From the UHGV virus genome UHGV-0107510: a DNA stretch of 12,257 nt, one strand, 5' to 3'. The DNA comes from a virus. Of the stretch, positions 3,741 through 12,164 are shown one piece after another. Under the pieces are notes generated by a model. That model saw only the letters and a list, made by a program, of their open reading frames with translations. It searched no databases and was not told the DNA's origin. The position numbers and the translations under genes are program-made. The first letter of the stretch is position 1. Each line of letters begins with the position of its first letter.

Positions 3741-4790
3741 GTGCGGGTATTACTTCGACCTGTTCTGGTACCGGAACTCGGTCTGGTTATCGTTAAGCCA
3801 GACCGTGAATCAATGTCAGTATTCCATAACGGCAGAATATTGGTGGAACCGGAACCCAAAAACATGCGCAGTCTTCCGTCCGGCGTCGTTGCAGCCGTTA
3901 GCCAGCCGTTGGCTGAGGATAAAACATTACTACCATTTTTCAGCGATGAGCGGGTTATTCGTGCAGCAGGTGGTGCAGGTGCACTGTCTGACTGGTTATT
4001 ACGTCACGTGAAATCCTGCCAGTGGCCACACGGCGATTATCATCACAGCGAAACAGTCATTCACCGTTACGGTACCGGCGCGATGGTGTTGTGCTGGCAC
4101 TGTGACAACCAGCTGCGCAACCAGACATCAGAATCACTCGATCAACTTGCTCAGCAGAATCTGGTTGCCTGGATGATTGACGTCATCCGTCACGCAATAA
4201 GCGGTACGCAGGAGAGGGAGTTATCGCTGGCCGAATTATCCTGGTGGGCGGCCTGCAATCAGGTGGTGGATGCACTACCTGAGGCAGTAGCGCGTCGTTC
4301 GCTGGGATTACCGGTGGAAAAAATCCGCTCCGTATACCGTGAGAGTGACATCGTACCGGGAGAACAGACAGCCATCAGCATACTGAAGCAGCGCACAAAA
4401 AATATTGCGCTGCCACTTCACGTCCACCAGCAACAAAATCCACCACAGAAAAAAACGGTTGTCAGTATCGCCGTTGATCCGGAGTCTCCTGAATCGTTCA
4501 TGAGGCGGCCTAAACGTCGCCGTTGGGTTAATGAGAAATACACGCGCTGGGTAAAGACACAGCCGTGTGCGTGTTGTGGTAAGCCAGCTGACGATCCGCA
4601 TCACCTGATTGGTCATGGTCAGGGGGGAGTGGGAACAAAGGCCCACGACATTTTCACGCTACCGTTGTGCCGGGAGCACCACAACGAACTTCATGCAGAC
4701 CCGCTGAAGTTTGAGAAAAAGTACGGCTCTCAGATTGAGTTAATTTTTCGTTTTCTTGATCACGCCTTTGCGACTGGCGTGCTCGGGTAA
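3741..4790 (+). CDS. DUF968-family protein (YdfU-like) with a C-terminal Cys/His HNH-like motif
   Basis: 349-aa ORF with GTG start and strong GGAGGT Shine-Dalgarno (3732-3737). Length and position (just upstream of rusA/Q) match YdfU-type prophage proteins. The C-terminus carries CACCGKP…HHLIGHGQGG…CREHHNELH. Confidence 0.8.
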   Translation: MRVLLRPVLVPELGLVIVKPDRESMSVFHNGRILVEPEPKNMRSLPSGVVAAVSQPLAEDKTLLPFFSDERVIRAAGGAGALSDWLLRHVKSCQWPHGDYHHSETVIHRYGTGAMVLCWHCDNQLRNQTSESLDQLAQQNLVAWMIDVIRHAISGTQERELSLAELSWWAACNQVVDALPEAVARRSLGLPVEKIRSVYRESDIVPGEQTAISILKQRTKNIALPLHVHQQQNPPQKKTVVSIAVDPESPESFMRRPKRRRWVNEKYTRWVKTQPCACCGKPADDPHHLIGHGQGGVGTKAHDIFTLPLCREHHNELHADPLKFEKKYGSQIELIFRFLDHAFATGVLG

Positions 4791-4802
4791 AAGAGGTGAC
4801 TG

Positions 4803-5162
4803 ATGCTCATAGATTTGGTTTTACCTTACCCGCCGACGGTGAACACTTACTGGCGACGCCGTGGCAGCACATATTTTATCTCGGAGGAGGGAAAGCGTTA
4901 TCGCCGGGCTGTGGCGCTTATTGTTCGCCAGCAGCGGCTGAAATTAAGCCTGTCCGGAAGGCTGGCGATAAAGGTGATTGCAGAGCCACCGGATAAGCGT
5001 CGTCGCGACCTGGACAACATTCTGAAAGCGCCGCTGGATGCGCTGACGCATGCGGGAGTGCTCATTGATGACGAGCAGTTTGATGAAATCAATATTGTAC
5101 GTGGTCAGCCGGTATCTGGTGGACGGCTGGGTGTGAAGATTTACAAAATTGAGAGTGAGTGA
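4803..5162 (+). CDS. rusA: Holliday junction resolvase RusA
   Basis: 119-aa product; the PPTVNTYW N-terminus and the central RRRDLDN…DAL…DD motif match the RusA family. GAGGTG Shine-Dalgarno upstream; canonical nin-region position before Q. Confidence 0.9.
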   Translation: MLIDLVLPYPPTVNTYWRRRGSTYFISEEGKRYRRAVALIVRQQRLKLSLSGRLAIKVIAEPPDKRRRDLDNILKAPLDALTHAGVLIDDEQFDEINIVRGQPVSGGRLGVKIYKIESE

Positions 5163-5170
5163 GCGTAAAT

Positions 5171-5731
5171 ATGATATATCCGGAAATTACAGGCAAAAGC
5201 GGCGAACATTTACGCCTGAACACGCTGGAAGCAGTCTGGATCCAGGGGAAATTACGGATGTGGGGGCGGTGGTCGTATATAGGCGGGGGTAAATCCGGAA
5301 ATATGTTTAACCGGTTACTGGTTTCGAAGAAGCTGACGAAAACAGCAGTTAAGGAGGTTTTACGCAGAATGAAGAAATCCGGGCTGGATAAACCGGAACT
5401 TGAGGCATTTTTTCGGGATATGACCAGAGGGAAGCAGAAGAGCTGGTTGTCACATTGTACAGACACAGAGGCGTTGATTATTGATCGCGTTATCAGTGAG
5501 GTGCTTGGGGAATATCCCGGGCTAATCAATATTCTCCGGCAAAGGTACGAAGGACGAGGAATGAGCAAACTGAAAATGGCCGAAAGGTTAAATGCAGATC
5601 ATCCTGAGTGGACGTTGGTTACGTGCAGACGCCGAATTGATCAATGGTTGGGGATATCTGAATTTATGTTACATGCCCCCATGCGTATGGCTTTTGTTAC
5701 AGAGAAAAAAATGTTGCAAACTGATCAATAA
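5171..5731 (+). CDS. Q: Late-gene antitermination protein Q family (alternative GTG start at 5159 overlapping the rusA stop)
   Basis: Sits immediately after rusA and immediately before a short promoter-terminator unit, as Q genes do. Contains a WGRWSY…GGG segment resembling the WGxW region of Q-family antiterminators such as DLP12 QuuD. Family call is part positional, part motif. Confidence 0.65.
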   Translation: MIYPEITGKSGEHLRLNTLEAVWIQGKLRMWGRWSYIGGGKSGNMFNRLLVSKKLTKTAVKEVLRRMKKSGLDKPELEAFFRDMTRGKQKSWLSHCTDTEALIIDRVISEVLGEYPGLINILRQRYEGRGMSKLKMAERLNADHPEWTLVTCRRRIDQWLGISEFMLHAPMRMAFVTEKKMLQTDQ

Positions 5732-5742: not shown

Positions 5743-5804
5743 CCGTATAAGCTTCGCAAGGCTGTATCGCGAGGCGAAACGCAAGTTTTTTCGCACAAGG
5801 AAGC

Positions 5805-5824
5805 CACCGGAAGGTGGTTTTTTG
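5805..5824 (+). terminator. tR'-like intrinsic terminator downstream of Q
   Basis: Stem CCACC (5805-5809) / GGTGG (5814-5818) with a GGAA tetraloop, followed by TTTTTT. Confidence 0.55.
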
Positions 5825-5946
5825 TGTCCGCGATATACAGCAGCGCAATAAATTCGCTGGTGGTTATTAATACCGTTCTTTCAGCTTGCTGGCTTTTTCG
5901 ACAAGAGTTATTGGTGTGTCACGTTAACCGGAAAAGGGAAAAAGAC

Positions 5947-6144
5947 ATGCTGAAACAGCAGGATATGACCGAAACCGCCAGAGTGGTGTTTAATGAATTA
6001 AGCGTCACCGAACCGGCGACAGTCGGGGAGATTGCACAGAATACGTACCTTTCACGCGAACGCTGTCAGTTAATACTGACCCAGCTTGTTATGGCGGGTC
6101 TGGCAGACTATCAGTTCGGTTGTTACAGACGCCTTCAGTCATGA
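5947..6144 (+). CDS. Small hypothetical protein (65 aa), possibly a winged-helix DNA-binding protein
   Basis: ATG at 5947 preceded by a purine-rich tract (GGAAAAGGGAAAAAGAC). Product MLKQQDMTETARVVFNELSVTEPATVGEIAQNTYLSRERCQLILTQLVMAGLADYQFG… has an HTH-like core. Its stop codon is embedded in a terminator hairpin. The listed ATG at 5824 overlaps tR' and is unlikely. Confidence 0.5.
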   Translation: MLKQQDMTETARVVFNELSVTEPATVGEIAQNTYLSRERCQLILTQLVMAGLADYQFGCYRRLQS

Positions 6145-6154
6145 AGGCTTTTTT
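6131..6154 (+). terminator. Intrinsic terminator
   Basis: Stem GCCTTC (6131-6136) / GAAGGC (6143-6148), loop AGTCAT, followed by TTTTTT (6149-6154). Confidence 0.5.
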
Positions 6155-6294
6155 ATTTGTGGTAAATGGGCGGCTGGTGGGTGTTAGGGGCACTCACCAG
6201 CCATCTGCTCATGCGTCCGGATCACAAGCAAACCTCAGGCCCACTGCTTTGCGCAAAAGCAGAATGAGCCTATCAGAGACAGGCTTAATGATCC

Positions 6295-7353
6295 ATGCTT
6301 AGTACTGTAAAAATATCCAGTTGTGAGTTAATCAACGCCGACTGCCTGGAATTTATCCGGTCGTTACCCGAAAATTCTGTTGACCTGATAGTCACGGACC
6401 CGCCGTACTTTAAAGTGAAGCCTGAGGGCTGGGATAACCAGTGGAAGGGCGACGATGATTACCTGAAATGGCTGGACCAGTGTCTTGCGCAGTTCTGGCG
6501 GGTGCTGAAACCTGCCGGAAGTCTTTACCTGTTCTGTGGCCATCGCCTGGCGTCTGACATTGAAATCATGATGCGTGAACGCTTCAGTGTGCTGAACCAT
6601 ATTATCTGGGCGAAGCCGTCCGGACGCTGGAACGGGTGCAACAAGGAAAGCCTGAGGGCGTATTTCCCCGCCACAGAGCGCATTCTGTTCGCGGAACATT
6701 ATCAGGGGCCGTATCGCCCGAAAGATGCCGGGTATGAGGCGAAGGGCAGGGCACTGAAACAGCATGTGATGGCTCCGCTGATTGCTTACTTTCGTGATGC
6801 GCGTGCTGCCCTGGGGATAACGGCAAAACAGATTGCTGATGCCACAGGAAAGAAAAACATGGTGTCGCACTGGTTCAGTGCCAGCCAGTGGCAGCTACCG
6901 GACGAAAGCGATTATCTGAAATTACAGGCGCTGTTTGCCCGGGTGGCAGAAGAGAAGCATCAGCGGGGTGAACTGGAAAAGCCCCACCACCAGCTGCTGG
7001 AGACGTATACTTCACTGAACCGGCAGTATGCGGAACTGCAGAGTGAATATAAGCTTCTGCGGCGGTATTTTGGCGTGACGGCGCAGGTGCCGTACACGGA
7101 TGTGTGGACGCATAAACCGGCGCAGTACTATCCCGGGAAACATCCGTGCGAAAAACCGGCAGAAATGCTGCAGCAGATAATCAGTGCGAGCAGTCGTCCG
7201 GGTGACCTGGTTGCAGATTTCTTCATGGGGTCAGGTTCGACAGTCAAAGCAGCGATAGCGCTGGGACGTCGTGCAACTGGCGTTGAGCTGGAGACTGAAC
7301 GTTTTGAGCAGACGGTCAGGGAAGTACAGGATTTAGTCAGTCAGAATGGATGA
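6295..7353 (+). CDS. Orphan DNA methyltransferase, beta-class N6-adenine/N4-cytosine type
   Basis: 352-aa ORF with the catalytic DPPY motif near the N-terminus (IVTDPPYF) and the AdoMet-binding FxGxG motif near the C-terminus (DFFMGSGSTVKAAIALG). That motif order is characteristic of beta-class amino-methyltransferases. No restriction endonuclease gene is adjacent. Confidence 0.85.
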   Translation: MLSTVKISSCELINADCLEFIRSLPENSVDLIVTDPPYFKVKPEGWDNQWKGDDDYLKWLDQCLAQFWRVLKPAGSLYLFCGHRLASDIEIMMRERFSVLNHIIWAKPSGRWNGCNKESLRAYFPATERILFAEHYQGPYRPKDAGYEAKGRALKQHVMAPLIAYFRDARAALGITAKQIADATGKKNMVSHWFSASQWQLPDESDYLKLQALFARVAEEKHQRGELEKPHHQLLETYTSLNRQYAELQSEYKLLRRYFGVTAQVPYTDVWTHKPAQYYPGKHPCEKPAEMLQQIISASSRPGDLVADFFMGSGSTVKAAIALGRRATGVELETERFEQTVREVQDLVSQNG

Positions 7354-7393
7354 TATTGCAGGATTAGTTACGTACCGTTATTATCCTGCGCCC

Positions 7394-7469
7394 GGCCCTT
7401 TAGCTCAGTGGTGAGAGCGAGCGACTCATAATCGCCAGGTCGCTGGTTCAAATCCAGCAAGGGCCACCA
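7394..7469 (+). tRNA. ileZ: tRNA-Ile (anticodon CAU, ileX-like; formally could be tRNA-Met)
   Basis: 76 nt with full cloverleaf: acceptor GGCCCTT/AAGGGCC, anticodon loop CTCATAA (CAT at 7427-7429), T-loop TTCAAAT, encoded CCA. Closely resembles E. coli tRNA-Ile2 (ileX) as I recall it. Gene names follow the ileZ-argN-argO trio described upstream of stx in Stx phages. Confidence 0.85.
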
Positions 7470-7478
7470 TATCACATA

Positions 7479-7555
7479 CCGCCATTAGCTCATCGGGATA
7501 GAGCGCCAGCCTTCGAAGCTGGCTGCGCGGGGTTCGAGTCCTCGATGGCGGTCCA
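7479..7555 (+). tRNA. argN: tRNA-Arg (anticodon UCG)
   Basis: 77 nt: acceptor CCGCCAT/ATGGCGG, D-stem GCTC/GAGC, anticodon stem CCAGC/GCTGG with loop CTTCGAA (TCG at 7513-7515), T-loop TTCGAGT, discriminator T then CCA. Confidence 0.8.
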
Positions 7556-7568
7556 TTATCAGCATCAT

Positions 7569-7645
7569 GCGTTGTTAGCTCAGCCGGACAGAGCAATTGC
7601 CTTCTAAGCAATCGGTCACTGGTTCGAATCCAGTACAACGCGCCA
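7569..7645 (+). tRNA. argO: tRNA-Arg (anticodon UCU, reads AGA/AGG)
   Basis: 77 nt: acceptor GCGTTGT/ACAACGC, D-stem GCTC/GAGC, anticodon stem ATTGC/GCAAT with loop CTTCTAA (TCT at 7603-7605), T-stem ACTGG/CCAGT, T-loop TTCGAAT, discriminator G then CCA. Confidence 0.85.
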
Positions 7646-7659
7646 GACTTATTTTTCCC

Positions 7660-7683
7660 GGCTCGCTTTTGCGGGCCTTTTTT
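7660..7683 (+). terminator. Intrinsic terminator after the tRNA cluster
   Basis: Stem GGCTCGC (7660-7666) / GCGGGCC (7671-7677) with one G:T wobble, TTTT loop, followed by TTTTTT (7678-7683). Confidence 0.55.
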
Positions 7684-7814
7684 GTCTCCGCGCCACGCCC
7701 GGCGCATATCAACCACAGAGCTTTCGGGGGTGAGCTTACGGAGTGGTCAGTGTGACTTTCTCTGTGGGCAGATCGCTCCCGGGCGTTGGCTCACCCACCC
7801 AAAGGAACGTCACG

Positions 7815-8246
7815 ATGTTTGGAATCTTCAAAAAGAAAACCCGCAGAGCGGCTGCGGAAATTAAAAAGTTTGAAAAACGCGATCTGGCACAAGCAGTGAT
7901 TAACGCTGCATACCTGGTGGCTTATGCCGATGGTGAATGTGAGGCTTCCGAGAAAGCGAAGATCGAACAGGTATTACGTAACCAGCCCACCTTGTCCGCG
8001 TTTACGTCAGAAATTAATGCGATTAGCGCAACCATTATCGGTCAGCTGGATACGAACTTTAAAATTGGTCGTCGTGCGGCGTTACGTGAGATCGAGGATG
8101 TGAAACACGATACGCGTGAAGCGGAAGACGTGCTGGATGTGGCGGTGGCCATTGCCGAAGCAGACGGCGAAATAGAGCCGGAAGAGCGCAAGGTGCTGGA
8201 AGAGATTGCCGGTGTTCTGGGCCTTCGTCTGGAGAATCATCTGTGA
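7815..8246 (+). CDS. TerB-family (tellurite resistance TerB-like) protein
   Basis: 143-aa product from ATG 7815, with AAGGAA Shine-Dalgarno at 7802-7807. It has the duplicated acidic TerB signature (…LVAYADGECEASEKAKIEQVL… and …AVAIAEADGEIEPEERKVLEEIAGVLGL…), which aligns by eye with canonical TerB. The listed ATG at 7743 lacks a Shine-Dalgarno and adds a non-conserved extension. Confidence 0.75.
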   Translation: MFGIFKKKTRRAAAEIKKFEKRDLAQAVINAAYLVAYADGECEASEKAKIEQVLRNQPTLSAFTSEINAISATIIGQLDTNFKIGRRAALREIEDVKHDTREAEDVLDVAVAIAEADGEIEPEERKVLEEIAGVLGLRLENHL

Positions 8247-8254
8247 CGGTAAAA

Positions 8255-8407
8255 ATGCGTCTGGCTGTGGTTGCGCTCCTGCTGTTTCTGGTGGTGATGG
8301 TGGACTTCAGCAGCCGGATAATGTCAGTGCTGGCTGACGGTGTGCTGGTGGCGGGTGTGGTGGTTGTTGCTTTCCCGTTGCTGAAAAAGAAAGCATCAGG
8401 CGATTAG
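8255..8407 (+). CDS. 50-aa hydrophobic membrane peptide (two predicted TM segments)
   Basis: MRLAVVALLLFLVVMVDFSSRIMSVLADGVLVAGVVVVAFPLLKKKASGD: two hydrophobic stretches and a KKK-containing C-terminus. Starts 8 nt after the TerB-like stop, suggesting co-transcription. Below the ORF-track length cut-off; found by manual translation. Confidence 0.4.
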   Translation: MRLAVVALLLFLVVMVDFSSRIMSVLADGVLVAGVVVVAFPLLKKKASGD

Positions 8408-8647
8408 CAGGGTATCAGTTACCCGTTGAAATTTTTAAATACCTCACAATTCAGGCGGTTGACTGTTGTCTGGTTTGCGGGGAGTTTGTTAAAAGAAACT
8501 GGCATGGTGAATCCCCCTGTGCGGAGGGGCAATCAGCAACTGGTGTTTTGTCACCGACCCTTATCCTTTCTGTGCGGGTTCAGGTGCTGATACTGAACTC
8601 ACCGGGAGGCACCCGGCACCATGCAATGGCACATAGCGCCACTCTCC

Positions 8648-8674
8648 AGCCCCTCTCCGGAGGGGCTTTCTTGT
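8648..8674 (+). terminator. Intrinsic terminator candidate
   Basis: Perfect 8-bp stem AGCCCCTC / GAGGGGCT with loop TCCG, followed by a T-rich tail TTCTTGT. Confidence 0.5.
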
Positions 8675-8678
8675 GGGC

Positions 8679-8705
8679 AAAAAAAAAGCCCGAGTGGGTT
8701 CGGGC
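8679..8705 (-). terminator. Minus-strand intrinsic terminator
   Basis: On the + strand, A9 (8679-8687) is followed by hairpin GCCCGA-GTGGGT-TCGGGC (8688-8705). Read on the minus strand this is a GC hairpin followed by U9. No T-run follows on the + strand. Confidence 0.5.
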
Positions 8706-8760
8706 AACAGCATGAGATATACATTTTTATAATCGAATGGATTTTAACCAGAATTCATAA

Positions 8761-8787
8761 GGCTGCGCAACTGCGCGGCCTTTTTCG
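8761..8787 (+). terminator. Intrinsic terminator candidate
   Basis: Stem GGCTGCGC / GCGCGGCC (8 bp, one G:T wobble) with loop AACT, followed by TTTTT (8781-8785). Confidence 0.5.
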
Positions 8788-8888
8788 TATTGCGGGCTGT
8801 AGTCTTCCTCCTGCCATTGTCCTGTAACTTCCGGACTTCAGCCCGTTCCCTCATCTGACTCACAACATTATCCCGACCGGGAGGATTC

Positions 8889-10868
8889 ATGACATTTAAA
8901 CACTACGATGTGGTCAGGGCGGCGTCGCCGTCAGACCTTGCGGAGCGACTGACACAAAAACTGAAGGAGGGGTGGCAGCCATTTGGCAGCCCTGTCGCCA
9001 TCACGCCTTATACCCTGATGCAGGCCATTGCGGCGGAAGGTGATGTCACCACACCTGTGGTGGTGAAGCCGTCGGATGGAGAAGGCACAGTTATCAGCAC
9101 CACCAGCGAACCGGAGTATTACTTTGTTGTTGTTCTGGCGGGGCAGTCAAACTCAATGTCTTTTGGTGAAGGGCTGCCGCTGCCGGAGACATATGACCGT
9201 CCGGACCCGCGTATTAAACAGCTGGCGCGTCGCAGTACGGTGACGCCGGGTGGTGCCGCCTGTAAATATAACGACATCATTCCGGCAGACCACTGTCTGC
9301 ATGATGTGCAGGATATGAGTAACCTGAATCATCCTGAAGCGGACTTGTCAAAGGGACAGTACGGTTGTGTGGGGCATGCTCTGCATGTTGCCAAAAAGCT
9401 GCTGCCGTTTATGCCTGCGAATGCGGGTATCCTTCTTGTTCCATGTGGCCGTGGCGATTCGGGATTTACTGCGGGGGCCGAGGGGGCGTTTAACGAAGCG
9501 TCGGGAGCGACCGCAGGCTCGTCCCTGTGGGGGGCGGATAAACCGCTGTATCATGACCTGGTCAGCAGAACCCGTGCGGCCCTGAAGAAAAATCCGAAGA
9601 ACGTGCTGTTATCAGTGATCTGGATGCAGGGAGAAAAAGATGTCAGTTCGGGGAGACATGCAGAACACAATGCGCTTTTCCTTGCCATGGTAAATCAGTT
9701 CCGTACGGAACTGGCAGATGTGGCAGAGCAGTGTACTGGCGGGACAACGGCCAGCGTCCCGTGGATTTGCGGTGATACCACGTACTACTGGAAGGAAAGG
9801 TATGCAGCGCCGTATGAGGCGGTTTACGGTGGGTATAAAGGCAAAGTTGCGCAGAATATTCACTTTGTGCCGTTGATGACGGATGAGCATGGTGTGAATG
9901 TGCCGACAAACGAGCCGTCAGAAGATCCGGACATTATCCCGGCGGGATACTATGGCGCTGCGTCACGCACTGCCAGTAACTGGACGGCAGCCGATCGTAA
10001 AACGCACTTCAGTTCATGGGCGCGAAGAGGCCTTGTTTCAGACCGCCTGGCAGGTGCCATTTTGCAGTACGCCGGGCGGACATTATCGTTCCTTACCGGG
10101 CAGAGCGCACCGCAGTCGGGTGGTACAACTCCTGTCAGTCCGGGGACACCGGATGTTGAGAAACCGCAGGATGGCGGTGTTGCTGGTACTGGTCATGATG
10201 AGGCCGTGAGCAGTACCAGGACGGTGGCTGAATATGATGCGAACAGTGGAAATGGTGCATTGACAGAGCAGCAGTGGGGCGCTTCCGGCGGCAAAGGCAC
10301 TGTGACTGATGACGGTGGACGGAAAGCGCTGCGACTGGAAAAACAGCCCGGTAAACTGACGTCCTGGAAAATGTTCCGTACTGTTGCAGTGGAGGAGGCA
10401 AAAAATCTTCTCAGCAAGGGGGGTGAAATTGCCGTACGGTTCAAAATTCCGGATGGAAGCGAACTGGTGAACGGACAGTTTGTCTTTGGTCTCTACTGGC
10501 CGGTGTCGCAGTGGGCGTCAGGCGCGGCAGCAAACAGTATGCTGGCATCATTCTTCCTTCAGACGGATGCATCAAATCTGAATCTTATGCACCACAAGGG
10601 CACGTCGAATGCACAACTGGGTACATTTGGTGCGTTTGACCATAACTGGCATACGGTTGTTTTCCGCTTTGCGGGAAATAACAGCGAAAGAGTCGTTCCG
10701 GTGATTGATGGTACAGAGCAGACGGCGTTTGACCTTGTGATGTGGACAAATGATGGCTTTACAGCAGATACGCTGACGCTGACAGATATCACGGGGACAA
10801 AAGCGACGTATCCGGTACTGCTTGATACGGTCACTGTCAACGTTAACGAAAGCCGGGCATCAGCATAA
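8889..10868 (+). CDS. nanS-p: NanS-p-like prophage sialate O-acetylesterase (DUF1737 N-terminal domain, esterase core, C-terminal domain after a Gly/Thr/Pro-rich linker)
   Basis: 659-aa ORF with GGGAGG Shine-Dalgarno. The N-terminus MTFKHYDVVRAASPSDLAERLTQKLKEGWQPFGSPV matches the DUF1737 start of the gene found just downstream of stx in Stx phages; the esterase core starts near VVVLAGQSNSMSFG. Confidence 0.85.
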   Translation: MTFKHYDVVRAASPSDLAERLTQKLKEGWQPFGSPVAITPYTLMQAIAAEGDVTTPVVVKPSDGEGTVISTTSEPEYYFVVVLAGQSNSMSFGEGLPLPETYDRPDPRIKQLARRSTVTPGGAACKYNDIIPADHCLHDVQDMSNLNHPEADLSKGQYGCVGHALHVAKKLLPFMPANAGILLVPCGRGDSGFTAGAEGAFNEASGATAGSSLWGADKPLYHDLVSRTRAALKKNPKNVLLSVIWMQGEKDVSSGRHAEHNALFLAMVNQFRTELADVAEQCTGGTTASVPWICGDTTYYWKERYAAPYEAVYGGYKGKVAQNIHFVPLMTDEHGVNVPTNEPSEDPDIIPAGYYGAASRTASNWTAADRKTHFSSWARRGLVSDRLAGAILQYAGRTLSFLTGQSAPQSGGTTPVSPGTPDVEKPQDGGVAGTGHDEAVSSTRTVAEYDANSGNGALTEQQWGASGGKGTVTDDGGRKALRLEKQPGKLTSWKMFRTVAVEEAKNLLSKGGEIAVRFKIPDGSELVNGQFVFGLYWPVSQWASGAAANSMLASFFLQTDASNLNLMHHKGTSNAQLGTFGAFDHNWHTVVFRFAGNNSERVVPVIDGTEQTAFDLVMWTNDGFTADTLTLTDITGTKATYPVLLDTVTVNVNESRASA

Positions 10869-10873
10869 CCGGC

Positions 10874-10911
10874 AAAAAAAAACCGCCAGCGGCAGGAACG
10901 GAAGCTGGCGG
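10874..10911 (-). terminator. Minus-strand intrinsic terminator candidate
   Basis: On the + strand, A9 (10874-10882) is followed by stem CCGCCAGC (10883-10890) / GCTGGCGG (10904-10911) with a 13-nt loop. A hairpin followed by a U-run exists only on the minus strand. Confidence 0.4.
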
Positions 10912-11008
10912 AGGTAATCCCAATGGAGAATGTAAAGAAAAGATGCTTTCGTACATTGGTTTTTTAAATGAAAACAGTTCTCATTGTCAACCATAACGGT
11001 AAGAAACT

Positions 11009-11203
11009 ATGACATTTATTCATCAGGTGATGCTGTACTTCTGTACGGCGGTCTGTGTGCTGTATCTTCTTTCGGGTGGGTACAGGGCAGTGCGCGATTT
11101 CTGGCGCAGGCAGATTGATAAAAGGGCCGCAGAGAAAATCAGCGCCAGTCAGTCAGCCGGAGCAAAAACAGAAGCCCCACTCATTCCGGAACAACCTTCT
11201 TAA
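11009..11203 (+). CDS. Small hypothetical membrane protein (64 aa, one N-terminal TM segment)
   Basis: ORF in the late-gene orientation with a hydrophobic N-terminus (VMLYFCTAVCVLYLL). Weak Shine-Dalgarno. No family recognised. Confidence 0.4.
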   Translation: MTFIHQVMLYFCTAVCVLYLLSGGYRAVRDFWRRQIDKRAAEKISASQSAGAKTEAPLIPEQPS

Positions 11204-11228
11204 TAACCCCTTTCAACGAGAAAATCCT

Positions 11229-11519
11229 ATGTCAGAAATAAAATCGCTGGTCACTGCTGAGGCAGTGAAGGAAGTCCTGCGCTCTGAAGAAGTCAGAAGC
11301 GCACTGAAACAGCAACTTCGGCAGAACCTTGAGGCGCGTCTTGATGCAGAAGTGGATGCCATTCTGGATGAATTGCTTGGTGCACAGCCGGAACCATCCC
11401 CGGAACTGCTTCCGGAACCACAGGCGGAAGATGTCACCACGGAAAATGGTGATATTCAGCCGGAGTCACCGGTGACGGATATGACAGACACACAACCCGA
11501 ACCGGGCACAATGCTGTAA
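11229..11519 (+). CDS. Hypothetical acidic protein (96 aa)
   Basis: ATG at 11229 with a GAGAAAA purine tract upstream. N-terminal predicted helical region (…ALKQQLRQNLEARLDAEVDAILDELLG…) followed by a Pro/Glu-rich acidic tail. Followed by a strong terminator. Confidence 0.5.
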   Translation: MSEIKSLVTAEAVKEVLRSEEVRSALKQQLRQNLEARLDAEVDAILDELLGAQPEPSPELLPEPQAEDVTTENGDIQPESPVTDMTDTQPEPGTML

Positions 11520-11529
11520 CGGCGGGGCA

Positions 11530-11560
11530 GGGCCATCAGTAAAGAGCTGGTGGCCCTTTT
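11530..11560 (+). terminator. Intrinsic terminator upstream of the lysis cassette
   Basis: 10-bp stem GGGCCATCAG / CTGGTGGCCC (one G:T wobble), 7-nt loop, followed by TTTTGTTGTTG. Confidence 0.6.
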
Positions 11561-11594
11561 GTTGTTGTGAGCTTCCGAGTACGGGAGACGGGGT

Positions 11595-11810
11595 ATGTAC
11601 CAGATGGAAAAAATCACAACAGGTGTGTCATACACCACGTCAGCGGTGGGAACGGGCTACTGGTTCCTGCAGTTGCTGGACAGGGTTTCCCCGTCTCAGT
11701 GGGCGGCAATAGGCGTGCTGGGGAGTCTGCTGTTTGGTCTGCTGACATATCTGACGAACCTGTATTTCAAAATTAAAGAAGACCGGCGTAAGGCGGCGCG
11801 GGGAGAGTAG
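11595..11810 (+). CDS. S: Phage holin (Stx-phage S-like)
   Basis: 71-aa product [71 protein letters not shown] has two hydrophobic segments and a charged C-terminal tail. Near-identical, as I recall it, to the 933W-type holin. GGAG Shine-Dalgarno 9 nt upstream. Two Met codons at positions 1 and 4 (possible dual start). Confidence 0.85.
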
Positions 11811-11813
11811 ACG

Positions 11814-12164
11814 ATGAATAAACAATACGAACTGGTTGTTAAAGGGATAAATAATTACCCGGATAAGATTACTGTTACTGTGGCACTGGAAATTGGTGGG
11901 TATCCGTCACTGTTGTTGCCATATGTGGCGATTAGTCTTGACCGTACTGAAGGTGCCACGCTGGAGTTTTACGAAGCTGAGGCGAAAAAGCAGGCGAAGC
12001 AGTTTTTCATGGATGTTGCTGCCGGGTTATGTGAAGGGAACGAACCGTTGCCGGAAAAGCGCCCCGTAATTTTAGAGGCGCAGAATGTATGGATAACCAA
12101 AAAAAGAAATCTACCGGGAAGAATTACTGGTTCTCTGAAGACTCCACCGGAATCACAACCTTAA
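11814..12164 (+). CDS. DUF1327-family protein (YdfR-like), between holin and endolysin
   Basis: 116-aa ORF starting 4 nt after the holin stop, with GGAGAG Shine-Dalgarno. The MNKQYELVVKGINNYPDKITVTVAL N-terminus and the holin-to-endolysin position match YdfR-type proteins of E. coli prophages, by recollection. Confidence 0.65.
   Translation: MNKQYELVVKGINNYPDKITVTVALEIGGYPSLLLPYVAISLDRTEGATLEFYEAEAKKQAKQFFMDVAAGLCEGNEPLPEKRPVILEAQNVWITKKRNLPGRITGSLKTPPESQP

Follow-up and report, generated by a model that had tools for sequence, protein, structure and literature searches.

A tciA-tciB cassette with a putative pseudoknotted leader RNA at the stx insertion point of the virus genome UHGV-0107510

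We describe a small accessory cassette in the virus genome UHGV-0107510, of which one stretch of 12,257 nucleotides (nt) was analysed (hereafter the window; positions count from its first letter). The cassette comprises a gene for a stand-alone TerB-family protein and a gene for a short membrane peptide, preceded by a terminator and a conserved leader, and it can be identified with near certainty as the tciA-tciB (tciAB) accessory cassette of enterobacterial phages. The two genes as such are already known; the novel element is the family of leader RNAs to which the sequence in front of tciA belongs. The parts of the cassette, with amino acids abbreviated as aa, are as follows.

7660-7685, + strand: Rho-independent terminator, GGCTCGC-TTTT-GCGGGCC (hairpin 7660-7677) and T-run, from a terminator scan
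7686-7814, + strand: putative structured 5' leader RNA of tciA, 129 nt, from conservation and covariation
7815-8246, + strand: tciA, a 143-aa stand-alone TerB-family protein, from Pfam, PHROG and PDB matches
8243-8407, + strand: tciB, a 54-aa DUF3927 peptide with two hydrophobic segments, from Pfam and PHROG matches and from PGAP and phage annotation

A reading of this DNA made earlier from the letters alone (the sequence-only reading) had assigned the 143-aa open reading frame (ORF) to the TerB family, and the assignment held when checked against Pfam. The TerB model PF05099 matches residues 26-138 with 60.1 bits (gathering cut-off 24.4; E = 3.2e-16), phrog_632 matches the full length, i.e., all 143 positions (E = 3e-69), and residues 14-137 align to residues 20-144 of the solved Klebsiella TerB, 2JXU_A (E = 4.5e-8). 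Sequence is enough to settle that TciA has the TerB fold. An NCBIfam scan yielded only sub-threshold matches, to DjlA and YmfL, which were set aside; the DjlA match is weak and covers residues 87-138 (E = 1e-6, 28.6 bits, model cut-off 162). The ATG start of tciA follows a Shine-Dalgarno sequence, AAAGGA (7801-7806), at a distance of 8 nt. When TciA was aligned with eight distant homologues (29-70% identity), the N-terminal motif M-F/L-G-x-x-K-K-K (MFGxxKKK) was conserved, and residues E46, D117 and E124 were invariant. These three lie in two acidic DGxxxxxE motifs, ADGECEASE (D39-E46) and ADGEIEPEE (D117-E124). Both motif regions of Klebsiella TerB, with which TciA shares its Pfam family, are kept. 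Unlike the terZABCDEF operon, however, tciA has no terZ, A, C, D, E or F nearby, and its partner is a 54-aa DUF3927 peptide and not TerC.

TciB matched DUF3927 (PF13064) at 71.6 bits (cut-off 25) and phrog_1470 (E = 1.5e-22), the latter labelled 'TciB-like inhibition of cell division or resistance to colicin'. Its GTG start at 8243 overlaps the stop codon of tciA as GTGA, with GGAG 8 nt upstream. Since RefSeq/PGAP and phage annotators place the start at this GTG, 80 of 81 close loci have the overlapping GTG, and tciB of phage P1 likewise overlaps the tciA stop, the gene is better called at 8243-8407 than at 8255-8407. The sequence-only reading had proposed a two-helix membrane peptide tightly linked to the TerB gene; linkage and peptide both stand, the peptide being conserved and translated, but its start and length do not (8243 and 54 aa, not 8255 and 50 aa). 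The GTGA overlap is consistent with translational coupling of tciA and tciB. The peptide has basic ends, MTVKMR... and ...KKKASGD, and an invariant core, DF(S/T)S-x3-S-x3-DG, which is retained in phages whose TciA is only 29-42% identical. In the N4-like phage Pollock, for example, TciA is 29% identical and TciB keeps LLFLVV-x-(V/I)DF(T/S)S-x-(I/V)MS-x-LADGVLVA. Across distant phages TciB is better conserved than TciA. An exhaustive search of 1.84 billion proteins found 53 representatives of the TciB family at 50% identity, nearly all of 30-90 aa and carrying the signature DF(T/A)S...S...DG, and the homologues are mostly 54 aa long. With so short a query tblastn was insensitive (two records), and it was replaced by ORF inspection and profile searches.

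Selection was assessed on 80 viral contigs whose TciA is at least 97% identical, which together with the window make up the 81 loci. Relative to the window, tciA showed 1-6 non-synonymous against up to 48 synonymous differences, and for the diverged alleles ω was 0.01-0.02 at a synonymous divergence (dS) of up to 0.76. The tciB gene is intact (54-55 aa) in 74 loci and has an ω of ~0.2-0.3 at a dS of ~0.6, its changes falling mostly in three alternative C-terminal tails. Both genes are therefore under purifying selection and neither ORF is there by chance. The three tails, KKKASGD, KKDMPGS and KRNSLHNA, occur among loci with near-identical TciA (L006-L085, ~4429-4595), and tciB DNA is only ~81% identical between the alleles, indicating a boundary of recombination at the tciA/tciB junction or close to it.

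The invariant acidic residues bear on one possible function of the pair, the handling of metals or other cations. TciB would then assemble into a small oligomer that conducts or binds cations by means of its two conserved acidic residues, and TciA would be a metal-binding cytoplasmic regulator acting through DGxxxxxE, the two adjusting divalent-cation or redox balance like a miniature TerB-TerC. The constancy of E46, D117 and E124 in TciA and of the DF(T/A)S...DG signature in TciB fits such a role, as do the partnership of TerB with the membrane protein TerC within ter operons and the 'tellurite resistance' label given by PHROGs and phage annotators. Those labels are, however, by homology only, as the phage P1 record itself notes; no homology between TciB and TerC was seen, Pfam giving DUF3927 only, and the lack of other ter genes nearby also speaks against it. 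We consider this function improbable.

The names tciA and tciB come from the pair in phage P1, according to notes in the P1 GenBank record, and the pair is catalogued in Pfam, PHROGs and RefSeq. The record of phage JLK-2012, with 95% identical DNA, annotates both genes, and RefSeq at 99.5% identity has a 'tellurite resistance TerB family protein' and a 'DUF3927 family protein'; the view of the pair as an unnamed, stand-alone curiosity, taken in the sequence-only reading, had to be given up. In the complete genomes of Escherichia coli, 790 of 5,426 have at least 80% of a query spanning tciAB. Homologues of TciA were found in 131 phage records, from temperate and obligately lytic phages alike. 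A profile of eight distant TciA sequences proved too diverse and two clade-specific queries were used in its place. The temperate carriers include P1, P7, D6, SJ46 and lambdoid phages, the obligately lytic ones the N4-like Pollock and FSL SP-076, jumbo phages of Erwinia and Salmonella (68-76% identity), and phages of Pseudomonas and Vibrio. The pairing is kept over these distances, a TciB gene lying directly 3' of TciA in P1, Pollock, the Erwinia jumbo phage ChrisDB and CharmingMan. In Pseudomonas phage Ebordelon an annotated 67-aa 'membrane protein' follows TciA. An unannotated 73-aa ORF in Pseudomonas phage AF (L088 1932-2153) has one N-terminal hydrophobic segment, i.e., a single transmembrane (TM) helix, and overlaps the tciA stop (GTGA), which suggests that the AF lineage has a non-homologous membrane partner for TciA.

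The leader between the terminator and the ATG of tciA is more conserved than the coding sequence of tciA; in CharmingMan the TciA protein is 42% identical and the leader DNA ~80% identical. In 167 of 185 loci, which span both TciA clades and include the Erwinia jumbo phage, a leader profile placed it immediately 5' of tciA; the profile did not find it in P1, Pollock or the Pseudomonas or Vibrio phages. At the position of the terminator nearly all loci have a hairpin and T-run, with differing stems, and the cassette is shown to travel as one unit of terminator, structured leader, tciA and tciB. The following elements were derived for the leader, in which P1 denotes a hairpin and not the phage.

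7690-7694/7701-7705, + strand: hairpin P1
7713-7720/7760-7767, + strand: pseudoknot P2 (strands b and b'), b' lying in the loop of P5
7721-7727, + strand: conserved CUUUCGG, in the family CUUUC(A/G)G
7728-7737/7787-7796, + strand: outer helix P3
7740-7748/7771-7779, + strand: inner helix P5
7743-7749/7753-7759, + strand: alternative hairpin P4, sharing GGUC with P5

Covariation was measured on two sets, each against 500 shuffles and against a control in which pairing partners were slid by 1-3 columns. In a MAFFT alignment of 26 tciA leaders, the version of the structure with P5 had 92.1% of cells paired, versus 38.8-45.7% in the slid control, and ten pairs with changes on both sides, versus 3.5±1.3 in the shuffles. 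The version with P4 gave 94.1% versus 34.3-46.4%, and eight such pairs versus 2.2±1.1; none of the 500 shuffles reached the observed number of pairs for either version. The second set comprised 38 distinct sequences from across the family aligned to a covariance model, a procedure that inflates pairing: 94.5% of cells pair, versus 76.2% when shuffled and 30-42% when slid. Changes on both sides were found in 22 of 24 pairs (13.7±1.8 in shuffles) and 126 cells were double changes (32.6±4.5), and again not one of the 500 shuffles attained any observed measure. At a single position the pairs were GC 12, UA 7, CG 5, AU 3 and UG 3, and this number of pair types per position is hard to explain otherwise, even though the alignment was fitted to a model.

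The covariance model was built without P2 or P4, which makes P2 an independent test. An alignment-free search recovered ten different complementary variants of P2 among 26 distinct leaders, and 25 variants in a larger set of 61, where the lowest-scoring members are noisy. Examples are CCACAGAG/CTCTGTGG, CCATGGAG/CTCCATGG and CCGTAGAG/CTCTACGG, along with CCAAAGA/TCTTTGG, CTCAGAA/TTCTGAG, GAAAGT/ACTTTC and ACCCGAG/CTCGGGT; within the 26-leader set the variants always end 1-3 nt ahead of the UUUCAG motif. Because cells with G.U exceed those with A.C by 48 to 15 (p = 4e-5), it is the mRNA-sense strand that folds. The same count, together with a minus-strand fold z of -0.98 versus -1.95, led us to reject a double-stranded DNA site or a minus-strand fold. 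The minimum free energy fold of the single sequence, in which CUCUGUGG pairs with GCUUACGGAG, was also discarded, as by visual check its pairing is lost in locus L172, where the P2 pairing is kept.

P4 and P5 are mutually exclusive, as they compete for the common GGUC, and both are supported by covariation, which suggests alternative conformers and a possible switch. For the CUUUC(A/G)G motif, a further potential partner is AAAGG within the Shine-Dalgarno sequence. Taken together, covariation strongly supports the leader as a structured, probably pseudoknotted RNA, with the proviso that the structure was derived from the same sequences, many of them related, and that E-values from a shortened calibration are rough. 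The leader of phage T4 gene 32 is a translational leader with a pseudoknot near the ribosome-binding site. The tciA leader resembles leaders of this type in being a structured 5' untranslated region whose pseudoknot ends a few nt before the Shine-Dalgarno sequence, but differs from them in that there is no sequence or Rfam relationship and in being a multi-copy family found on many unrelated genes.

Beyond tciA, the covariance model finds paralogues ahead of other genes, with scores of 36-90 bits. Such leaders precede a dozen or more unrelated accessory genes, usually straight after a terminator and with the leader ending at the ATG. Besides TciA, the products of the genes behind them include a GT2-type glycosyltransferase, P22-type antirepressors, Ant and Rha, as well as members of several families whose function is unknown. 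Of 82 leader instances, 63 have a T-run directly before them, and the 3' end of the model coincides with ATG in 36 of 39 aligned members, an A-rich GG motif lying mostly 6-9 nt upstream. Examples of the paralogues are the following.

L072, 7138-7275: leader paralogue
L090, 4979-5096: leader paralogue
L109, 5285-5402: leader paralogue
L203, 7089-7226: leader paralogue
L198, 4665-4782: leader paralogue
L195, 623-739: leader paralogue

Rfam 15 gave no relevant match to the leader, either at the gathering score over the window or at E up to 10 over 7640-7860, and none in eight loci with paralogues; the yybP-ykoY (Mn) riboswitch, an idea prompted by its link with TerC genes, was dropped for want of an Rfam match. 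A literature search found no description of the leader RNA. In three viral contigs the leader lies several kb from tciA, at ~2.5 kb in L021 and L027 (leader 1331-1463, tciA 4001) and at ~3.9 kb in L032 (leader 18-150, tciA 4001), which looks like an insertion, possibly of an insertion sequence element, exactly at the leader/ATG junction. In L158/L171 (1816-1902) and L052 (1883-1954) there are truncated leaders that retain just hairpin P1 and strand b and run into the ribosome-binding site of another gene; they look like scars of recombination inside the leader. We somewhat favour the view that the leaders form an undescribed family of pseudoknotted cis-acting RNAs marking the 5' edge of accessory cassettes in enterobacterial phages, in the order terminator, leader and ATG, and controlling translation, possibly through switching among P4, P5 and P2. 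They may also provide homology for the exchange of tciAB, antirepressor, Rha and glycosyltransferase cassettes, and may explain how late-operon cargo is expressed independently of its context.

The cassette is flanked in the window by the following features, where sRNA stands for small RNA.

5159-5731: Q-like antiterminator, from Pfam and PHROG matches
6295-7353: N6/N4 DNA methylase, from Pfam
7394-7645, + strand: trio of tRNA genes (left flank), ileZ-like CAU, argN-like UCG and argO-like UCU, from ARAGORN and Rfam
8473-8678, + strand: STnc100-family sRNA-like element (right flank), from Rfam RF02076, 144.5 bits against a gathering score of 47
8683-8735, - strand: homologue of AsxR, the 'anti-stx2 sRNA' (right flank), from Rfam RF02703, 63.0 bits, which is exactly the gathering score of 63
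8889-10868, + strand: nanS-p-type esterase (DUF1737, SASA and DUF6645), from Pfam

The Q-like antiterminator, tRNA trio, terminator hairpin and esterase that the sequence-only reading had placed around the pair were thus all found, and its idea that the pair sits in the stx slot proved exact to the base. Compared with the Stx2a phage WGPS2, the window is 95.7% identical over 5846-7694, then breaks off, and homology begins again at 8444, with stx2A and stx2B lying between the two points in WGPS2. The left breakpoint at 7694 is 49 nt past argO and 43 nt ahead of the stx2A start in WGPS2, and the homology from 8444 on is to the DNA 3' of stx2B, running into the esterase gene. A ~750-bp tciAB cassette (7695-8443) is therefore present in place of the 1.33-kb stx2AB cassette, with Q, the methylase and ileZ-argN-argO on the left, the nanS-p esterase on the right, and breakpoints matching those of stxAB. 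The trio bears the names ileZ/argN/argO in the Stx2a_WGPS2 annotation, and in RefSeq the tRNA with the CAU anticodon is Ile and the other two are Arg-UCG and Arg-UCU. The tRNA unit ends in the terminator at 7660-7685, which is also the left boundary of the portable tciAB module. The two cassettes share their insertion point and the AsxR and STnc100 homologues downstream; unlike the stx2AB cassette, which is unrelated as cargo, tciAB carries its own leader, which is not present at the WGPS2 site. The STnc100-like region is ~70% identical to the DNA 3' of stx2B in locus L001, and the sRNA neighbourhood of Stx phages is retained in this stx-free phage. Both sRNA matches sit in the 480 nt that separate tciB from the esterase gene.

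The window is colinear over 5849-12149 (~94%) with the RefSeq-annotated prophage L005, and this colinearity puts DUF1378, DUF826, a class II holin (11595-11810) and YdfR after the esterase, and the cassette between Q and the lysis genes. In a spread sample of E. coli genomes the slot held TerB with DUF3927, a 'hypothetical protein' with DUF3927, either of these with iraM, one hypothetical gene, or nothing. The 'hypothetical protein' cargo with DUF3927 appears to be a second TciA clade that PGAP does not label TerB. The gene iraM, for an RpoS anti-adaptor, stands alongside tciAB in the slot in E. coli hits H153 and H187. Throughout, the module stays downstream of Q and upstream of the esterase, and it is the upstream unit that changes: Ile/Arg/Arg tRNAs, Ile/Arg, Asn/Gly (annotated Asn/Thr/Gly), a toxin-antitoxin pair or none, with the methylase present or not. 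In locus L003 (PPyecE_EH1910), a 'plasmid stabilization protein' and a 'transcriptional regulator' at 4112-4807, a toxin-antitoxin-like pair, replace the tRNAs.

In unrelated phages, too, tciAB recurs within or beside tRNA clusters: in P1 (L004 2616-4276) Asn and Thr precede it and Ile-CAU follows, in the JLK-2012 phage (L002 4755-5749) it has Asn/Thr/Gly, and in ChrisDB (L086 886-3277) Trp and Cys lie before and Tyr/Gln/Ile/Met after. A DNA methyltransferase is just upstream of tciAB in both P1 and the window. Elsewhere in the window, Rfam matched isrK (970-1043, 52 bits), C4 antisense RNA (1069-1152, 70 bits) and sok (1856-2030, 117 bits), and hokD is annotated at the corresponding site of the RefSeq relative. 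A candidate tR'-like terminator, CCACC-GGAA-GGTGG then TTTTTT, lies at 5804-5823 on the + strand, ~75 nt past the Q stop; the scan listed this hairpin on the minus strand only.

As for when the pair is expressed, a consensus scan found no σ70-like site on the + strand of 7686-7814, although weak or non-σ70 promoters could escape such a scan. A promoter of consensus type inside the leader was rejected, there being no match and by eye only hexamers of 3/6 and 3/6. Terminator hairpins lie upstream of tciAB at 6131-6148 and 7660-7677, and, in the same kind of scan, the nearest + strand terminator 3' of it is the hairpin at 8648-8667 that ends the STnc100-like element; both results bear on whether tciAB is a moron, a transcription unit with a promoter and terminator of its own. 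In phage P1, tciAB lies on the same strand between the C1-operated promoters P1ban/P2ban and ban. The P1 system resembles that of the window in several ways: TciA shows 41% identity along its entire length, TciB has 54 aa, the same stop overlap and a nearly identical core, and a DNA methyltransferase and tRNAs including Ile-CAU are in the neighbourhood. It differs in having a third small membrane ORF, tciC (35 aa), after tciB, in lacking the structured leader, and in belonging to the C1-controlled ban operon, whereas the cassette of the window would belong to a Q-dependent late operon. Besides tciB, the ORFs of at least 25 aa that start within 350 nt 3' of the tciA stop are 8426-8590 and 8548-8715, both non-hydrophobic and neither tciC-like. 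Because no promoter was found and terminators lie upstream, because of the ban-operon position in P1 and the place between Q and the holin in the window, and because obligately lytic phages carry the pair, expression in the lytic programme is favoured, and we think that tciAB is probably expressed mainly in the lytic cycle. By analogy with stx2, transcription in the window would come from the Q-antiterminated late transcript.

These observations also bear on the proposal that the pair is a defence or abortive-infection module benefiting the lysogen, in which TciA would serve as a membrane sensor of TerB type and TciB as an effector forming a pore or leak, oligomerising via conserved intramembrane Asp residues and depolarising the cell or blocking DNA entry on phage attack. 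The slot is a classic place for cargo, being home also to stx, iraM and a toxin-antitoxin pair, the cassette is very common in E. coli prophages, and two invariant Asp lie in or next to the hydrophobic segments of TciB. TerB-like proteins with membrane or pore-forming partners are validated anti-phage systems: Dionysus consists of DinA (TM domain), DinB (TerB-like) and DinC (a 4-TM pore-forming toxin), and TerB domains have been reported also in SngA of Shango and BnzA of Bunzi. The tciAB pair is like these in coupling a TerB-like protein genetically to a membrane protein. They differ, however, in having three genes, far larger proteins (a MAEBL+TM protein and a 4-TM pore-forming toxin, or an ATPase and a helicase) and a place in chromosomal defence islands; as judged from its published description, the Dionysus architecture of MAEBL+TM, TerB-like protein and 4-TM toxin is not that of tciAB, with its two genes and 54-aa two-helix partner.

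Other results point away from expression in the lysogen. No model of PADLOC-DB v2 matched, the best for TciA being PDC-S48 (14.7 bits, E = 0.003, 35 residues) and TciB having none. For the N4-like and jumbo phages with the pair there is no lysogen to protect, the P1 copy is within a C1-repressed operon, and in the window a terminator lies directly upstream and a promoter of the pair's own was not detected. An ω of ~0.01 for TciA is also unlike the rapid diversification which we regard as typical of many defence sensors. The superinfection-exclusion or abortive-infection module envisaged in the sequence-only reading is therefore not supported in the form given. Defence of the lysogen stays alive as a rival because a TerB-like protein with a membrane partner has precedent in validated systems, but we judge it unlikely.

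Both lytic and temperate phages carry the pair, and wherever timing could be deduced it is expressed in the lytic programme; this would suit a counter-defence function, in which a phage TerB homologue acts during infection as a decoy or inhibitor of host immunity based on TerB or on membrane stress. Host defence systems do use TerB domains, yet the case is purely analogical, TciA has no significant similarity to PADLOC models that would include SngA and BnzA, and the conserved membrane peptide partner is left without a reason. This is the most improbable of the explanations considered, and together with metal handling it is a weaker rival than defence of the lysogen.

The explanation that we put forward is a lytic-cycle module acting at the inner membrane. 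Transcription of tciAB would occur mainly in the lytic programme, where Q-modified RNA polymerase reads through the upstream terminators as it does for stx2, and translation of tciA would be set by the pseudoknotted leader, which ends 5 nt before the Shine-Dalgarno sequence. TciA would be held on the cytoplasmic side of the inner membrane by its own hydrophobic-polybasic N-terminus and by TciB, in keeping with the description of TerB as an amphitropic peripheral membrane protein (PMC7823757; bioRxiv 10.1101/2025.09.30.679545). The weak match of TciA to DjlA also fits an association with the membrane. From its two hydrophobic segments and basic ends, TciB is predicted to have both termini facing the cytoplasm, and a membrane complex of TciA with TciB seems reasonably likely. 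In the weakest step, the complex would condition or guard the infected cell's inner membrane up to the moment of programmed lysis, e.g., against depolarising insults such as superinfecting phage or pore-forming colicins, and could be seen as exclusion of superinfecting phage or as tolerance to colicin. Determinants of the ter type have historically been tied to phage inhibition and colicin resistance, which a membrane-guard role would echo, but we regard this specific guarding or exclusion role as doubtful. The explanation as a whole is a tentative one, which we prefer without expecting every part of it to hold.

Several points weigh against it. A literature search found no experiment on any phage TciA or TciB, and papers on lambdoid prophages of Nissle and on lysogeny transcriptomics make no mention of TerB or tciA. 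A CRISPR interference screen of P1, in which tciA, tciB and tciC all scored as non-essential for plaque formation, shows tciABC only as dispensable in that respect. The physical interaction of TciA with TciB is deduced from synteny only, and an exhaustive search found no TerB-TciB fusion protein; its only long hit, P0138, was rejected as a chimeric call with a histidine-phosphatase fragment. Since Vibrio phage K481 has a TciA with no small membrane ORF after it, TciA can stand alone. Membrane binding and the topology of TciB are read from the amino acid sequences. The absence of a promoter is that of a consensus scan, and there may be a weak or non-σ70 promoter, or expression in the lysogen.

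For the biology of these phages, the pair is not a new defence candidate, as tciAB is named, catalogued and found in hundreds to thousands of E. coli genomes. It ranks with the most frequent alternatives to stx at this insertion point, and purifying selection on it is very strong. The lytic-phage carriers and the repressed operon of P1 shift the focus from immunity of the lysogen alone to the lytic cycle, i.e., to lysis timing, membrane potential and superinfection. The leader RNA, if our interpretation of it is true, would be a regulatory element that is both new and widespread in phage accessory cassettes, those of prophages of the enterohaemorrhagic E. coli type among them, and would give a handle on how phage cargo is expressed and shuffled.

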